A stretch of DNA of 64,000 nt from an uncultured Candidatus Binatia bacterium (lineage in GTDB: Bacteria; Desulfobacterota; Binatia; UBA9968; JAJDTQ01): the NCBI GenBank assembly GCA_965215605.1, contig OZ244070.1, positions 2,240,001 through 2,304,000 of the forward strand, written 5' to 3'. The translations under genes were made by a program, and so were the position numbers. Every line of letters starts with the position of its first letter. The stretch's first letter is position 1. Shown one piece after another: positions 17,645 to 25,191 of the stretch. Below the pieces are notes generated by a model, which was not told the origin of the DNA, did no database searches, and was given only the letters and a program-made list of their open reading frames with translations.

Positions 17645-17858
17645 CACTTTGGCGTAGCGTGTGTAAACCGCCATCCCGGGTCCGATGGCCGCTTGGGCGA
17701 GGTCCACCGGAGCGATGTTGCCGGCCTGGAGGTGGGCCAAGGCGGCGGGGAGTTCGGCCTTGAGCGCGGCGACGAACTCGCGCCGGGTGGCCAAGGGCGC
17801 GTCGTCCGGGCGCCGGCGACAGACCAGGACGATGCTGGAGGCGAGGGCGTTGGTGCCC
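17645..17858. repeat. IR3 left arm (inverted vs 24423-24636)
   Basis: Highly similar block encoding [17 protein letters not shown]; 41-bp identical core 17649-17689 = reverse complement of 24592-24632. Confidence 0.88.
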
Positions 17859-18536
17859 ATGCCGATCATGCGGTTGGTGAGTTCGGTGCGCATGGGCCAT
17901 GTGCCCGTAACGGCGAAACCCGCACGAATCACGGCGTCAAGAAACGTCTCCCATCCAGTGCTGGCAGTCCCCGCTTCGCCCTTGGTCTCCGACTGCTTGA
18001 AGGCATAGTAGATCGTGCTTGGGAAACTGGGATGTGTATCCTGAGCCAATCGCGTCACGGCGCGCGTCATTCCCTCCATGAAAAAGGTCTCTGCCTTCAC
18101 TTTACTCCCGTGGCGGTATGGAGTGGCCACCAATTCCTCGGCCTTCGGCACAGCCACCGTGGCGAAGAGGCCTGGGAACGTTGATCGCAACGAACGCCGT
18201 AGCCATACGTAGAAAAAATCCGAGAGGTCAGCGTAACCGATGTTGTCGTAGTAGGGTGGATCCGTGGAAACGATTCGGGCAATAGACTGTTCTTGTACCG
18301 CAGCATCCACCAAGGTGGCCGTGCCGACGGAGTTAGGTACAAACGTCAATAAGGGGTCCATGACGCAAGCGGTCGCGGCGTCAACACTTCCCGTTGCCTT
18401 CGCCAAGAAGTTGGGTTCAGCATAATCCCAGACCATAGGGAGAGCTTGTCGCCCGAAGCAGTGTTGAGCTTTTTGTCCGACACCGTTCCACCGGACTAAG
18501 TTGTTGCCCGTCATTGCCAGCCGATCCACCGCGAAA

Positions 18537-18650
18537 GCCAGATACACTCCCACTGCCTCGGAATACGCCCGCGCCCCCGAGCCGCCGTCCCGCAGGGGGC
18601 GGTCGTCGTCAGCCATGGATTGGGCCGCCTCCGCGTAATCGTTTCTGACC
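18537..18650. repeat. IR2 left arm (inverted vs 23631-23744)
   Basis: 114-bp identical block encoding [37 protein letters not shown]. Confidence 0.9.
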
Positions 18651-18992
18651 TGCTCGATGGCACCGCCCACCAAGTCGGAGAAGGTCGTCAAGGCAACCAG
18701 TTGGCGAGCCGTGAAGAGATCGCGCCACATGGTCATGCCATATTCTTGTACGCGGAATCCGAGCGCGCGTTCCGGTAAATTCGTTCCGGGGGTCCACTGC
18801 GGTTCCGCCCCATTCGCGACGGCTTCATGTTCAGGTGTTGGCGCCAAGTAAACCCGACCCCGGTCGCCTTCCGCTACAATCGCCATCAGCCTCCCGCCCA
18901 TGCGCCCGGATTTGGCCTCTGACCGCAGGTACTCGAACGGCAAGGGTGCGTCAGACATGAGGCACAGGAACGGCTTCCCGCTTCCCCCCGAT

Positions 18993-22164: not shown

Positions 22165-22170
22165 TTGTCG

Positions 22171-23288
22171 GTTCATGGTAATGGAGGAGGGATGGAAGAG
22201 ACGAAGAAGTTGATCGAGGTGGCGTTGCCGTTGGAGGCGATCAACGTGGCGTCAGCGCGGGAGAAGTCGATTCGGCACGGGCATCCGAGCACGCTGCATT
22301 TGTGGTGGGCGCGGCGACCGTTGGCGGCGGCGCGGTCGGTAATATTTGCGCAGATGGTGGACGATCCATCGGAGTACGTGGAGGAGTTGCTGTCGGACGC
22401 GGACCGGAGGCAGGCGGCGGAGGGGCGATTGAAGGAGCGGCTGGTGGAGCGGGAGGGGCAGCGGGCGGTGGCGGGCACGGAGTTGGGTATGGGACCGGAG
22501 CCGACGCTGGAGGGGGTGGCGGCGGAGCAGGAGCGTGAGCGGTTGTTCGGGCTGATCGAGGAGTTGGTGAAGTGGGAGAACACGACGAACGAGGTAGTGC
22601 TGGAGCGGGCGCGGACTGAGATACGGCGGAGTTGGCGGCGGGCGTGTGCGCGGAACGTGGATGAACCAAGGGCGAAGGAGTTGTACGACCGGGAGAAGCT
22701 GCCTGGGTTTCACGATCCATTTGCGGGCGGGGGAGCGTTGCCATTGGAGGCGCAGCGATTGGGGTTGGAGGCGCACGCGAGCGATCTGAATCCGGTGGCG
22801 GTGTTGATCAACAAGGCGATGATCGAGATACCGCCGCGGTTTGCGGGGCGGGGGCCTGTGAACCCGGGGGTTCGGAGTGGAGGAGGGACAGGGAAAAGAA
22901 CTCTGGTGGAGCGGGAGTGGAAGGGAGCGCAGGGGCTGGCGGAAGACGTGCGGTACTACGGGCAGTGGATGCGGGACGAGGCGGAGAAACGGATCGGGCA
23001 TTTGTACCCGAAGGTGGAGGTGACCGGGGAGATGGTTCGGGAGCGGCCGGACCTGAAGCGGTACGAGGGGCGGGAGTTGACGGTGATCGCGTGGCTGTGG
23101 GCGCGGACGGTGAGGAGTCCGAATCCTGCGTATGCGGAGGTGGAGGTGCCGTTGGCGTCGACGTTCATGTTGTCGACGAAGAAGGGGAAGGAGGCGTATG
23201 TCGAGCCGGTGATTGAGGGACGGCGGTATCGGTTCGAGGTAAGGGTGGGGAGGCCGAAGGATGAGGAGAAGGTGAAGACGGGGACGAA
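22171..23288. repeat. IR1 right arm
   Basis: GTTCATGGTAATGGAGGAGGGATGGAAGAG...GGGACGAA; reverse complement of 18993-20110; includes the RBS and the first ~365 codons. Confidence 0.93.
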
Positions 23289-25191
23289 GATGGCGCGCGG
23301 GGCCAACTTCAAATGTTTGATGTCGGGAACGGCGCTCACTGCTGGTTATATTCGATCAGAGGCCCAGGCCGGACGTATGGGTTCCCGGTTGATGGCAATC
23401 GTAGCTGAGGGAAATCGCGGGCGAGTCTATCTCGCACCCGTGGCCAATCACGAGGCGATTCCGCGGACGGCAAAGCCAGCGTGGAAACCCGATCTTAAGG
23501 TGCCAACGCCATGCCACGATGTTGACCGTCTTCCGATGTACGGGATGCCGACGTGGGGTGATGCGTTCACTCCCCGCCAGCTCGTTGCGTTGACCACCTT
23601 CTCGGACTTGGTGGGCGAAGCCATCGAGCGGGTCAGAAACGATTACGCGGAGGCGGCCCAATCCATGGCTGACGACGACCGCCCCCTGCGGGACGGCGGC
23701 TCGGGGGCGCGGGCGTATTCCGAGGCAGTGGGAGTGTATCTGGCATTTGCTATCGACAAATTGGCCGATCGGAACTCAACCGTGTGCGCTTGGGCGACTC
23801 TTCGGGAACACGCCCGCAATACATTCGGGCGCCAAGCCCTCCCCATGGTGTGGGACTTCGCTGAAAGCAATCCGTTGTCCAAAGCGAGCGGCAATTTCGA
23901 CGGGGGCATTACATCAATTGTCGCTGCTTTGAGTTCGGTTGTGCCATTGGCATGGGGTAGCGCTACACAGAGCGACGCCCAGTCAGTCAATGACCGGGGC
24001 ATACGGGTCTTTTCTACCGATCCGCCATACTACGACAATGTCGGATATGCTGATCTCTCGGACTTCTTCTACGTTTGGCTGCGTAGAGCAGTTAGATCGA
24101 TCTTCCCTGACATCTTTTCTACCGTGACCGTTCCGAAGTGCGAAGAACTGGTAGCAACCCCATACCGGCATGGCAATAGGGCCAAGGCAGAGGCATTTTT
24201 TCTGTCTGGGATGACAGAAGCCATGAGGGGCTTGGCAGTGCGCTCACACCCTGCCTTCCCAGTGACAATATATTATGCATTCAAACAGTCTGAGACTAAG
24301 GGTGACACAGGTATTTCAAGCACTGGTTGGGAGACGTTCCTGGACGCTGTAATTCGCGCTGGTTTCTCCGTTACGGGCACGTGGCCGATGCACACCGAGC
24401 TAAGTAGGCGAATGGTGGGGAAGGGCACCAACGCCCTGGCATCCAGCATCGTCCTGGTCTGCCGCCCGCGCCCGGACGACGCCCTCCTCGCCACCCGGCG
24501 CGAGTTCGTCGCCGCGCTCAAGGCCGAGCTTCCGCTCGCCCTCGCCCACCTCCAGGCTGGCAACATCGCTCCGGTAGACCTCGCCCAAGCAGCCATCGGA
24601 CCCGGGATGGCGGTTTACACACGCTACGCCAAGGTGTTGGACGCCCAGGGCAGGCCGGTTCCCGTCCGGGATGCGCTGGCGCTCATCAACCAGACGCTCG
24701 ACGAAACCCTTGCCGAGCAGGAAGGCGAGTTTGACGCGGACACCCGCTGGGCGTTGGCATGGTTCGAGCAGCACGGGTTTGGCGAGGGTGAGTACGGCGT
24801 GGCGGAAACGCTCTCCAAGGCCAAGAATACGAGCATCGCGGGCGTCGTCGATGGAGGCATTCTGGACTCCCGCGCCGGGAAGGTTCGGCTTCTGCGGCCC
24901 GCGGAGTTGGCCGATGACTGGGATCCCACCGCGGATTCGCGGCTTACGGTTTGGGAGGCTGTTCACCATCTCGTTCGTGTTCTCGATGCAGGCGGCGAAA
25001 CGGAGGCCGCGCGTCTTCTGAGGCGGTTGGGAGGGGTAGGGGAAACCGCGCGTGAGTTGGCCTACCGGCTTTACAGCATCGCGGAACGAAAGAGCCGGCC
25101 GGCGGAAGCCTTGTCGTACAATGGGCTGGTCCAAAGTTGGCCGGAAATCGTCCGCTTGGCTGGCTCCCCGGAGCAGGCCGAGTTGCTCTGA
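22192..25191 (+). CDS. DUF1156-domain DNA amino-methyltransferase (full-length allele B)
   Basis: RBS GGAGG + ATG; [10 protein letters not shown] (DUF1156 N-terminus), motif I DPFAGGG, motif [10 protein letters not shown]; 999 aa. Confidence 0.92.
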   Translation: MEETKKLIEVALPLEAINVASAREKSIRHGHPSTLHLWWARRPLAAARSVIFAQMVDDPSEYVEELLSDADRRQAAEGRLKERLVEREGQRAVAGTELGMGPEPTLEGVAAEQERERLFGLIEELVKWENTTNEVVLERARTEIRRSWRRACARNVDEPRAKELYDREKLPGFHDPFAGGGALPLEAQRLGLEAHASDLNPVAVLINKAMIEIPPRFAGRGPVNPGVRSGGGTGKRTLVEREWKGAQGLAEDVRYYGQWMRDEAEKRIGHLYPKVEVTGEMVRERPDLKRYEGRELTVIAWLWARTVRSPNPAYAEVEVPLASTFMLSTKKGKEAYVEPVIEGRRYRFEVRVGRPKDEEKVKTGTKMARGANFKCLMSGTALTAGYIRSEAQAGRMGSRLMAIVAEGNRGRVYLAPVANHEAIPRTAKPAWKPDLKVPTPCHDVDRLPMYGMPTWGDAFTPRQLVALTTFSDLVGEAIERVRNDYAEAAQSMADDDRPLRDGGSGARAYSEAVGVYLAFAIDKLADRNSTVCAWATLREHARNTFGRQALPMVWDFAESNPLSKASGNFDGGITSIVAALSSVVPLAWGSATQSDAQSVNDRGIRVFSTDPPYYDNVGYADLSDFFYVWLRRAVRSIFPDIFSTVTVPKCEELVATPYRHGNRAKAEAFFLSGMTEAMRGLAVRSHPAFPVTIYYAFKQSETKGDTGISSTGWETFLDAVIRAGFSVTGTWPMHTELSRRMVGKGTNALASSIVLVCRPRPDDALLATRREFVAALKAELPLALAHLQAGNIAPVDLAQAAIGPGMAVYTRYAKVLDAQGRPVPVRDALALINQTLDETLAEQEGEFDADTRWALAWFEQHGFGEGEYGVAETLSKAKNTSIAGVVDGGILDSRAGKVRLLRPAELADDWDPTADSRLTVWEAVHHLVRVLDAGGETEAARLLRRLGGVGETARELAYRLYSIAERKSRPAEALSYNGLVQSWPEIVRLAGSPEQAELL
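23631..23744. repeat. IR2 right arm
   Basis: Reverse complement of 18537-18650. Confidence 0.9.
24423..24636. repeat. IR3 right arm
   Basis: Near reverse complement of 17645-17858. Confidence 0.88.

Follow-up and report, generated by a model that had tools for sequence, protein, structure and literature searches.

Organisation of the Hma locus

The window (the whole stretch of DNA analysed, 64,000 nucleotides) comes from a metagenome-assembled genome (8 contigs, contamination 5.7%). It encodes a phage-defence system, Hma (BREX-related type 1), in which HmaA is an SNF2 helicase-nuclease, HmaB a DUF1156 adenine methylase and HmaC a DUF499 ATPase. The following genes were identified:

13409..17038, + strand: hmaA, SNF2 helicase with a C-terminal NOV_C nuclease domain (Pfam SNF2-rel_dom, Helicase_C, NOV_C)
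17225..17644, − strand: tail of the allele A reading frame, 138 codons, unrelated to allele B and to the HmaB profile
17645..20089, − strand: hmaB' (allele A), inverted copy of hmaB codons 1-815 that has an ATG and a ribosome-binding site of its own but no C-terminal ~185 aa
20158..21153, + strand: int1, tyrosine recombinase (Pfam Phage_integrase, SAM_3, Phage_int_M)
21160..22164, + strand: int2, tyrosine recombinase, 40% identical to int1 (Pfam)
22192..25191, + strand: hmaB (allele B), full-length DUF1156 N6-adenine methylase, 999 aa (Pfam DUF1156)
25137..25970, + strand: AlbA_2/Schlafen-like gene, between hmaB and hmaC (Pfam/PADLOC)
25786..26667, + strand: DUF488 / PDC-M45B gene, between hmaB and hmaC (Pfam/PADLOC)
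26804..28159, + strand: HTH and M78 peptidase / PD-Lambda-2_B-like gene, between hmaB and hmaC (Pfam/PADLOC)
28256..31543, + strand: hmaC, DUF499 AAA+ ATPase carrying HEPN_Swt1 at its N-terminus (PADLOC HmaC, 1151 bits; Pfam DUF499, HEPN_Swt1)

HmaA matched the PADLOC HmaA profile PDLC00659 with 1666 bits over profile positions 1-1172 of 1176. Allele B matched PADLOC HmaB with 1499 bits (profile positions 79-954 of 967), compared with a weak 83 bits for the DUF1156_MTase model, and carries FAGGG at residues 177-181 and DPPY at 610-613. In the structure model its C-terminal ~185 aa form helical domains predicted with confidence (pLDDT about 90). Allele A scored 1255 bits against PADLOC HmaB, and the profile match stopped at position 787 of 967. 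All 815 homologous codons are open, without a stop, and the alignment with allele B collapses past residue about 817. The preliminary description was correct on the 815-codon match and the C-terminal loss in allele A, but not on a stop at 17645; the frame continues through the unrelated codons to 17225 (17225-20089 as a whole, 954 aa). The ribosome-binding site GGAGGAGGG lies upstream of both ATGs, and site and ATG are identical in the two alleles. The three embedded genes jointly occupy 25137..28159 on the + strand and split hmaB from hmaC.

Inverted repeats and divergent segments

The two alleles were compared base by base about a mirror axis (coordinate sum 42281), in parallel with a repeat finder, and the following features were delimited:

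18993..20110 (left arm) and 22171..23288 (right arm): IR1, 1118 bp, 100% identical (repeat finder and mirror comparison)
18537..18650 (left arm) and 23631..23744 (right arm): IR2, 114-bp identical core (mirror comparison)
17645..17858 (left arm) and 24423..24636 (right arm): IR3, 214 bp, about 90% identical (mirror comparison)
23289..23630, + strand: V1 of allele B, codons 367-480, with its allele A counterpart at 18651-18992 (mirror comparison and protein alignment)
23745..24422, + strand: V2 of allele B, divergent core at codons 521-605 and the rest 75% identical, with its allele A counterpart at 17859-18536
24637..25191, + strand: constant 3' end of hmaB, single-copy, encoding the C-terminal ~185 aa

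The repeat finder returned inverted pairs at 18993-20127 / 22154-23288 (1135 nt, 99%), 18531-18742 / 23539-23750 (212 nt, 89%) and 17645-18273 / 24008-24636 (629 nt, 78%). Both methods agreed with the three pairs on one axis that had been proposed beforehand, and the mirror comparison also with the proposed 41-bp IR3 core. That core spans 24592-24632 and is followed by one mismatch and three matches, then by background similarity; the outer edge of the left IR3 arm is the end of homology. The full 2466-nt match is ungapped on a single axis, and the reading frame is therefore kept in each block. A perfect inverted repeat of 1.1 kb is far beyond chance.

At the protein level residues 1-366 were identical between the alleles, followed by V1 (367-466, about 50%), IR2 (467-520, 96%), the V2 core (521-605, 38%), residues 606-743 (75%) and residues 744-815 (94%). 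Segments of 38-53% protein identity thus separate repeat blocks, two of which (IR1 and IR2) are 100% identical in DNA. IR2 is identical between the alleles while residues 481-500 vary in the family (entropy 1.41 bits), which points to copies homogenised beyond protein constraint alone. Comparison of the three repeats revealed no short motif common to IR1, IR2 and IR3, and hence no evident recombinase site shared by all of them.

The central recombinases

Both recombinases, described earlier as intact, proved to be so: their reading frames are open, each has a Pfam Phage_integrase match above cut-off, and alignments showed the R..K..HxxR..H..Y catalytic residues retained. The true start of int1 may be the TTG at 20231, after AAAGGAGA. 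A gap of 6 nt separates the two genes, and 27 nt lie between the end of int2 and the start of hmaB. When int1 was compared with a class sample of 401 genomes, the top two matches (E = 1.7e-213 and 2.2e-195, against 2.7e-115 for the third) were exactly the two that adjoin a duplicated hmaB. Tandem int1/int2-like pairs at 53-63% identity were found on at least nine metagenome contigs and at a second site in G114, a genome of the same class but another family, with no hmaB and no flanking inverted repeats at the recombinase pair. On this evidence the two recombinases may form a mobile module, not a dedicated invertase. The hmaB-linked pair of G114 was barely closer to the window pair (64-68%) than these were. 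On metagenome contig L099, an inverted repeat of 544 bp (82% identical), which falls within pieces of a DruA-like gene, surrounds an int1-like recombinase (56% identical), and a second defence gene is therefore arranged alike.

Recurrence and cassette exchange

A search of other genomes for a DUF1156 gene with a partial inverted copy and an integrase pair, as suggested in the preliminary description, yielded G114 as a second case. Here hmaA, a truncated and frameshifted inverted hmaB', full hmaB, int1 (64-68% identical to the window orthologue), int2 (59-66%) and hmaC share one locus, whose inverted repeats measure 1172 bp (96% identical) and 621 bp (85%). Because the 96% block takes in the V1 region, the copies differ only in V2 and a short N-terminal linker. 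In both the window and G114, copy-to-copy homology stops after one and the same codon, that for Val in ...YTRY-x-x-V. Among short, N-terminally complete HmaB homologues, 30 of 38 lose similarity no more than 8 codons past GPGMAVYT, and their tails past this breakpoint are unconserved. Seven pairs of full and truncated HmaB were found, each apparently on one contig; with the window counted, V2 was 24-38% identical between partners in 7 of 8 pairs, compared with 77-96% for IR2 and 83-100% for IR3. Few species representatives have the duplicated design: it was present in 2 of the 38 HmaB-positive genomes of the class sample and in none of 12 further HmaB-positive genomes of the phylum sample (14 positives minus the window's genome and G066), and in none of 19 viral-contig loci.

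V2 cassettes of truncated copies reappear in full-length genes of other loci, and vice versa. Full-length P0121 matched full-length P0167 over residues 1-366 (100/87/89% in three blocks) and truncated P0013 over residues 521-812 (98-99%), and the differences between P0150 and P0153 were essentially limited to V1 (59%) and IR2 (77%). From these patterns, exchanges with V1-side breakpoints have occurred in nature, and the sequences fit V1 and V2 behaving as separately exchangeable cassettes in related loci. A search of 5.8 billion proteins yielded no near-identical chimeric protein; the best non-self match to allele A residues 355-820 was 76% identical. Family entropy was maximal in V2 (521-600) and part of V1 (421-440), and both segments lie between FAGGG (motif I) and DPPY (motif IV). 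This is where PMC12839542 places the nested target-recognition domain (TRD), and where the central TRD of the alpha-class methylase type likewise lies according to the MANTIS preprint (10.64898/2026.09.23.753747).

Proposed inversion switch and alternatives

As judged from sequence, hmaB is probably a site-specific inversion switch for specificity in an Hma anti-phage system, operating by programmed inversion. Two 815-codon heads diverge from the central recombinase gene pair. Both carry a ribosome-binding site, a start codon, the DUF1156 domain, a methylase core and a nested target-recognition region, and the single C-terminal domain of ~185 aa is joined to the right-hand head only. The two recombinases would act jointly, in XerC/XerD fashion, to invert the DNA between paired repeat arms. 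A crossover at the outer site (the IR3 end) would swap the entire head on the constant tail, one within IR2 would swap V1 apart from V2, and up to four in-frame full-length enzymes would be produced. We infer inversion in the host, its catalysis by int1 and int2, the use of IR2 as a crossover site, and V1 and V2 as specificity determinants. The polarity is unusual, with 5' modules swapped onto a single constant 3' end.

The earlier reading of the locus as a shufflon gained from the G114 design with orthologous recombinases, the common truncation point and the exchangeable V1 and V2 in the TRD region, and was weakened by a recombinase family that is not exclusive to such loci. The count of four enzymes assumes crossover at IR2 as well as IR3, and cross-genome breakpoints support IR3 only.

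This bears on a simpler, two-state switch, a possible but clearly minor contender, in which the outer end of IR3 would be the sole site-specific crossover, whole 815-codon heads would swap, V1 and V2 would never part within a cell, and IR1 and IR2 would be merely conserved or gene-converted. The IR3 end alone has a breakpoint common across genomes and to the 30 truncated homologues, the three repeats have no common motif, and the position of V1 in G114 leaves little but V2 to be swapped. The perfect 114 bp of IR2 at a point where the family varies, the restriction of P0150/P0153 differences to V1 and IR2, and the make-up of P0121, in which the 5' part comes from one copy type and V2 from the other, speak instead for crossovers inside the heads.

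It is unlikely that the arrangement is a static relic, in which a mobile tandem-recombinase element beside hmaB caused or accompanied an inverted partial duplication and the truncated copy is a decaying pseudogene that undergoes no present inversion. Decay could account for the frameshift in the G114 copy and for the unconserved tails, and metagenome contigs and a further G114 site do have related recombinase pairs with neither hmaB nor inverted repeats beside them. The locus was held in four runs of one study, all as short-read Logan unitigs, and no inverted form was present in these unitigs, which end at repeat borders and cannot span the repeats. Allele A nevertheless keeps an 815-codon frame without a stop, and perfect IR1 and IR2 beside segments of 38-53% identity are the opposite of uniform decay. 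The breakpoint is also common to many lineages, cassettes pass between truncated and full copies, and an orthologous recombinase pair adjoins duplicated hmaB in two families.

Improbable, too, is inversion and gene conversion by general homologous recombination across the long repeats, with the recombinases as passengers. IR1 and the 1172-bp repeat of G114 are ample RecA substrates, and no recombinase site common to the repeats was found; but the sharp, shared end of homology at one codon looks site-specific, the short 41-bp and 114-bp identical cores resemble site-specific crossover points, and both recombinase orthologues are kept beside the duplication in two families. A false inverted duplication from metagenome assembly is very improbable even though the metagenome assembly has some contamination and no single read or contig among the short-read unitigs crosses the region, as unitigs specific to V1A, V1B, V2B and int were each found at 99-100% identity in independent runs, IR1 unitig depth was about 1.5-2x the mean of unique inner unitigs (9.4 vs. 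6.1 in X1, 11.3 vs. 6.8 in X3, 5.8 vs. 2.9 in X2), and G114 and the protein pairs have the same design.

Relation to known systems

Type I hsdS shufflons (pneumococcal SpnIII/ivr) have several inverted-repeat pairs, between which a tyrosine recombinase reassorts two variable target-recognition segments independently of each other, giving several specificities per locus. What is shuffled there is the gene for a distinct specificity subunit, with silent copies that are fragments lacking a promoter, whereas the shuffled unit of hmaB would include the catalytic methylase itself. In the R64 plasmid shufflon, the tyrosine recombinase Rci inverts segments at repeated 19-bp sfx sites and joins alternative coding modules to one constant gene part, so that C-terminal segments of the pilus adhesin are swapped; the hmaB repeats are without a common short motif, and in hmaB it is the C-terminal part that is constant. 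The silent pglX copy of BREX is without its 5' end. That of hmaB keeps its start codon and is missing the 3' end, and the two tandem recombinases are a further difference from pglX.

At BREX type 1 pglX loci (e.g. NC_013198.1), inversion was validated by long reads (Milman et al., 2023, Table 3, PMC9881135). As in hmaB, a defence adenine methylase gene has a recombinase close by and an incomplete, inverted second copy, and inversion changes the specificity-bearing part of pglX. PglX is gamma-class with a C-terminal TRD, and its variable part therefore lies at the 3' end, whereas HmaB is alpha-class with a nested TRD and belongs to another protein family (DUF1156). The DISARM class 1 drmMI and Type IIG inversion loci (PMC9881135, Table 3) likewise combine large methylase genes and helicase-containing defence operons with programmed inversions, but differ from Hma in methylase family and partner genes. 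Neither DUF1156 nor Hma appears in the main text of that survey. In agreement with the preliminary description, no account of an inversion switch in DUF1156/DUF499/SNF2 (Hma) systems was found in the literature covered, which included the main text of this one systematic inversion survey.

MANTIS / Gao_RL (BREX-related type 2) is a sister system with a DUF499 ATPase. Its methylase MtsC, alpha-class with a central TRD between FAGGG and DPPY, acts on asymmetric 6-bp sites, which it hemimethylates, and serves to guide a helicase-nuclease (10.64898/2026.09.23.753747). By analogy, MtsC is the best available model for HmaB function. MANTIS differs from Hma in consisting of four genes, with MtsB and a PLD-helicase effector among them; the available part of the preprint describes no inversion or recombinase. 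The sole published test of DNA methylation by HmaB, in Halomonas, found no effect (PMC11232893). If hmaB does switch, the motif that is methylated would change together with the range of phages restricted, since it is the methylase that marks 'self' and steers the HmaA helicase-nuclease.

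Inverted hmaB copies in the Hma locus

The complete set of three Hma genes (PADLOC) was found at 13.4-31.5 kb of the window, which is GC-rich (62-69%). The source contig, 3.96 Mb long, is one of 8 that make up a metagenome-assembled genome of 4.06 Mb. Hma has been renamed 'BREX-related type 1' in a recent comparative paper (PMC12839542). Features are listed by window coordinates and strand.

Features of the Hma locus
13409-17038, + strand: hmaA, SNF2 helicase with C-terminal NOV_C/PD-(D/E)xK nuclease (PADLOC HmaA 1666 bits, full profile; Pfam SNF2-rel_dom, Helicase_C, NOV_C)
20089-17645, - strand: hmaB' (allele A), inverted copy of hmaB lacking the 3' end
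20158-21153, + strand: int1, tyrosine recombinase
21160-22164, + strand: int2, tyrosine recombinase
22192-25191, + strand: hmaB (allele B), N6-adenine methylase core (Pfam DUF1156 E 2.8e-26; PADLOC HmaB 1499 bits)
25137-28159: three embedded genes in the hmaB-hmaC interval, AlbA_2/Schlafen-like; DUF488 (PADLOC candidate PDC-M45B, 256 bits); HTH + M78 peptidase (PD-Lambda-2_B-like, 91 bits)
28256-31543, + strand: hmaC, DUF499 AAA+ ATPase (PADLOC HmaC 1151 bits; Pfam DUF499 E 6.5e-34)

The embedded AlbA_2, DUF488 and HTH-M78 genes probably also serve in defence or regulation, and such insertions are usual, being stated for 62.7% of 1,485 Hma systems (bioRxiv 10.1101/2024.01.29.577857). Ahead of DUF499, the HmaC N-terminus carries a HEPN_Swt1 domain (residues 11-112, E 7e-29; window 28256-28600). 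HmaA by itself is reported to have given defence against T4, and a test of a role for HmaB was negative (PMC11232893). A promoter scan of 16900-25400 returned 0 sites and is uninformative for an organism this GC-rich.

Codons 1-815 of hmaB are present a second time, inverted, between hmaA and hmaB (from 20089 down to 17645), and the open reading frame of this copy runs on through 138 unrelated codons to 17225. The three inverted-repeat pairs (IR1, IR2 and IR3) and the mirror axis placed by the preliminary description were recovered at the same coordinates by base-by-base mirror comparison. IR1 (1118 bp, 100% identical) also covers the 21 nt that precede each ATG, where both copies have the ribosome-binding site GGAGGAGGG. 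IR2 has a 114-bp identical core, and IR3 spans 214 bp at ~90% identity with a 41-bp identical core at its end, past which similarity between the copies is lost abruptly. All repeat blocks fall on one ungapped axis, and every block is therefore in frame. Between the blocks, protein identity of allele A to allele B was 53% in segment V1 (367-466) and 38% in the core of segment V2 (521-605). The window has the gene-level layout of a shufflon, a gene and its inverted partial copy with in-frame repeats flanking divergent segments. No motif was common to IR1, IR2 and IR3, and none of the three held a convincing dyad; IR2 and IR3 shared no 12- to 14-mer (up to 1 mismatch in a 12-mer, up to 2 in a 14-mer), nor IR3 and IR1 a 13-mer at up to 1 mismatch. 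In this the repeats differ from an R64-type shufflon, where one short motif recurs at every segment border.

Tyrosine recombinases between the copies

The recombinase genes int1 and int2 share 40% identity; 6 nt separate them, and a further 27 nt lie between the end of int2 and the hmaB ATG. Pfam Phage_integrase was above cut-off for both (66.9 and 81.5 bits), and alignments placed catalytic residues at R192, K215, H275, R278, H301 and Y310 of int1 and at R160, K183, H242, R245, H268 and Y277 of int2. The site-specific recombinase gene expected at a shufflon is therefore present in the form of two Phage_integrase genes with catalytic residues between the copies. Assignment to XerC/XerD, integron integrases or named invertase families was rejected, the best NCBIfam matches scoring 63-81 bits against cut-offs of 220-335; judged by profile matches, the pair appears to belong to no named subfamily among NCBIfam families.

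A recombinase-in-trio (RIT) element consists of three tandem tyrosine recombinases within terminal inverted repeats. A RIT-like element was likewise rejected, with only two recombinases in the window, and with two in related pairs elsewhere and no flanking repeats detected there. Tandem int1/int2-like pairs (53-63% identical) were found, apart from any hmaB or flanking inverted repeats, on no fewer than nine contigs from metagenomes and also at a second site in G114, a genome of the same class but a different family. Their loci are L087, L088 and L090-L097, in one of which (L092) the pair lies beside yidC and ymdB-like genes, and L111 (G114:C1:2368000-2387999). More distant recombinase copies are also carried in the window's genus, and the window's own genome has a further int1-like gene 1.4 Mb away (G000:C1:864727-865587). 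Because such pairs occur away from any hmaB, int1 and int2 may be a mobile two-recombinase module that was recruited here. An int2 scan of genome contigs, for which the query peptides were non-conserved, returned 10 relatives at 24-40% identity, none adjoining hmaB, and viral contigs gave no int2 relative above 30% identity.

Recurrence in other genomes

Among 401 genomes of the class sample, 38 had a strong HmaB match, and the duplicated inverted hmaB was seen in 2 of these (the window's genome and G114), with two candidates scored per genome, so that second copies could escape. The phylum sample was scored in the same way and held 14 HmaB-positive genomes; after removal of the window's genome and G066, the design was found in 0 of 12. 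Viral contigs gave 19 loci that match HmaB, and none of them had a second copy on the opposite strand. Flanks of loci from relatives were only 1.5 kb, which makes the 0 of 19 there a weak count. The design is uncommon.

The combination that the preliminary description had singled out, hmaB with a partial inverted hmaB and an integrase pair, recurs in G114 with orthologous recombinases. Two HmaB matches lie there on opposite strands, 1.6 kb apart, and the locus (L086) comprises hmaC, an int2 orthologue, an int1 orthologue, an HSDR_N-domain gene, full hmaB, and a truncated hmaB' followed by hmaA. The int2 orthologue is 59-66% and the int1 orthologue 64-68% identical to its window counterpart, and the two best int1 matches in the class sample, by a wide margin, were the two that adjoin a duplicated hmaB. 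The truncated hmaB' of G114 covers codons 5-815 and carries a frameshift. The inverted repeats of the locus (1172 bp, 96% identical, and 621 bp, 85% identical) enclose a divergent segment that is the counterpart of V2, and homology between copies stops after the same Val codon of ...YTRY-x-x-V in the window and in G114. The hmaB copies of G114 are convergent with the recombinases outside, whereas those of the window are divergent with the recombinases inside.

Directly upstream of the full hmaB of G114, and divergent from int1, lies a gene (L086 5690-6880) whose 396-aa product bears the N-terminal domain of Type I HsdR (PD-(D/E)xK-like); the window has no counterpart. In G023, a genome of the window's genus, two full-length hmaB homologues share one strand and are separated by 15 kb (C1:1269105-1272254 and 1284995-1288108), a direct and not an inverted duplication.

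Mosaic HmaB proteins

Two protein-collection searches (best 120 of each) gave 159 N-terminally complete homologues among the matches listed, 38 of them shorter than 930 aa. Family similarity ended within 8 codons after GPGMAVYT in 30 of these 38, and unconserved tails then continued. Seven truncated proteins could be paired with a full-length one by equal size of the recorded longest contig. From this size, given in the protein records, we infer that each pair shares one contig. In 7 of 8 pairs, including that of the window, identity between partners was 24-38% in V2, 77-96% in IR2 and 83-100% in IR3. Partners exceeded non-partners in IR2 (84 vs 73%) and IR3 (92 vs 87%), with no such excess in V1 or V2.

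Full-length P0121 equals full-length P0167 over its first 366 residues and truncated P0013 over 521-812, and essentially the only differences between P0150 and P0153 are in V1 and IR2. Full-length genes on other contigs contained the V2 cassettes of truncated copies at 76-98% identity, and the reverse was also seen. It follows that cassettes have been exchanged between the 'silent' and the 'complete' position, and that breakpoints lie to either side of V1. The cassette exchange between copies predicted by the preliminary model is thus visible as mosaics among related loci, and with G114 and the truncated homologues the design is conserved elsewhere and its cassettes reassorted, as in a shufflon. 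G114 was rejected as the source of P0013 and P0167, which are only 64-65% identical to its copies. The protein-collection search gave no near-identical chimera of allele A (none above 76% identity).

Variable segments and target recognition

V1 and V2 lie between motif I (FAGGG, residues 177-181) and motif IV (DPPY, 610-613) of the methylase. In structure-based published work the target-recognition domain (TRD) of this methylase type is located in that same interval, and it is described as a nested insert (PMC12839542). For the sister enzyme MtsC of MANTIS, crystal and cryo-EM structures are described with a 'central TRD' between those motifs, and MANTIS is stated to hemimethylate asymmetric 6-bp sites (bioRxiv 10.64898/2026.09.23.753747). 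Across 121 aligned full-length homologues, column entropy had its maxima within V2 (residues 521-600, 1.0-2.6 bits) and within V1 (421-440, 1.7 bits). An AlphaFold2 model of allele B (101-sequence alignment; mean pLDDT 69.5, pTM 0.41) had pLDDT below 50 at 180-250 and 523-656, i.e. in the methylase core and V2, too low to be informative on the placement of V1 and V2. A profile search of PDB sequences gave no match.

The HmaB homologues P0003, P0043 and P0075 (1205-1272 aa) contain an in-frame insertion with Pfam PF01797 (Y1 transposase, IS200-like), probably present also in G012:C1:3737180-3740800 and G024:C1:4610706-4614320. In P0003 it sits within the stretch corresponding to IR2. One-strand interrupted hmaB genes were also seen in G020, G446 and L042.

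Read data and competing explanations

Four runs of one study contain the locus, covered as Logan unitigs (k=31, short reads). Unitigs on 16000-26500 ended at 17647, 19022, 20012, 22200, 23660, 24515 and 24607, which are repeat borders; they break off at the identical cores of 41, 114 and 1118 bp, leave the flanks unlinked and are neutral on inversion. An 'opposite strands' joint at 18262/23112 matches none of the repeats and was set aside; it came from one contig of run X4, with 32 letters to its shorter side. In run X1, unitig depth was 18.8 and 12.3 in the flanks (16103-17647 and 24607-26500) and 4.6-7.4 in unique inner sequence (18621-24515); runs X2 and X3 had a weaker form of this pattern. 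The flank excess could reflect co-occurring strains with shared flanks and other cassettes; an artefact in the unitig depths would explain it just as well.

The architecture of inverted partial hmaB, repeats and recombinases is real. Its reading as a probable inversion switch, put forward in the preliminary description, is well supported by the comparative evidence. The reading is weakened by the lack of a motif common to the repeats, by recombinase pairs like int1/int2 away from hmaB, by the frameshift in the truncated copy of G114 and by how seldom the design is seen. We consider it probable that recombinase-driven inversion at IR3/IR2 changes the methylated and restricted motif. The best-supported crossover would lie at the outer end of IR3, and a second within IR2. 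By inversion the one C-terminal domain would come to be attached to alternative methylase heads (the 815-codon 5' part) or to other pairings of V1 and V2, with a change of the methylated and restricted motif. Nested within this idea, a version of the switch with two states only is a minor possibility. That the arrangement is a static relic of a mobile element we regard as improbable, and exchange driven by RecA in place of the recombinases as more improbable still. An inverted duplication created by assembly is scarcely credible, given the allele-specific unitigs and an IR1 depth ~1.5-2x that of unique inner unitigs.

Both heads keep a ribosome-binding site, start codon, methylase core and TRD, so a truncated head could still be produced and act as a methylase on a motif of its own. 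It is a speculative and rather unlikely proposal that this reversed polarity is the point of the design, with both methylation patterns always kept and a flip of the tail (the constant C-terminal domain) changing restriction without a window of self-attack. Restriction through HmaC and HmaA would then be open only to the head joined to the tail. If true, this would solve the autoimmunity problem of specificity switching in restriction-like systems. On a related bold reading, the recombinase pair and the 815-codon head might be a mobile specificity cassette that targets conserved codons of any hmaB.

Relation to known systems and meaning

Programmed gene-altering inversions are described as established for hsdS, BREX pglX, DISARM drmMI and Type IIG genes (PMC9881135). 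From these the Hma locus differs in protein family (DUF1156), in its tandem pair of recombinases, and in a silent copy that keeps the start and catalytic core and lacks the 3' end only; both heads could therefore be expressed. Compared with gene-altering inversions described so far, the polarity is unusual: the modules exchanged would be 5' ones that each bring a start codon, and the single 3' end would stay constant. Elsewhere, in the metagenome contig L099 (Ga0209022_1005956), an int1-like gene (2411-3574, 56% identical) lies between inverted repeats 928-1468 and 5690-6230 (544 bp, 82% identical), of which one is the 3' end of a gene with a DruA (Druantia) domain and the other an inverted piece of that gene; from its layout this looks like a candidate inversion switch in another defence gene.

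In line with the preliminary statement that such switching was not known to be described for DUF1156/DUF499/SNF2 systems, the papers found on DUF1156 did not deal with inversion, and no text searched connected it with Hma. The 11,000 predicted loci of PMC9881135 may include such a case. As far as their accessible text extends, the Hma embedding preprint (bioRxiv 10.1101/2024.01.29.577857) has no 'recombinase', 'inver' or 'phase', the BREX-related systems paper (PMC12839542) no 'inversion', 'shufflon', 'phase varia', 'recombinase' or 'integrase', and the MANTIS preprint (bioRxiv 10.64898/2026.09.23.753747) no 'recombinase'. The Hma survey is described as keeping only loci with each hma gene once, on one strand and with no pseudogenes (bioRxiv 10.1101/2024.01.29.577857), so that inverted-hmaB loci were filtered out by design. 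This exposes a blind spot, duplicated or opposite-strand hma loci being absent from the systematic survey.

Hma and other BREX-related DUF499 systems are widespread, with over 3500 taxa given in one cited paper and 1,485 Hma systems found in the survey (bioRxiv 10.1101/2024.01.29.577857). The way in which Hma/DUF499 systems discriminate self from non-self is just beginning to be understood. A natural switch of methylase segments would point to specificity residues in V2 (521-605) and V1, and would supply natural chimeras for methylome experiments. It would also show that Hma/DUF499 systems, like Type I, BREX and DISARM, vary specificity population-wide against phage escape.
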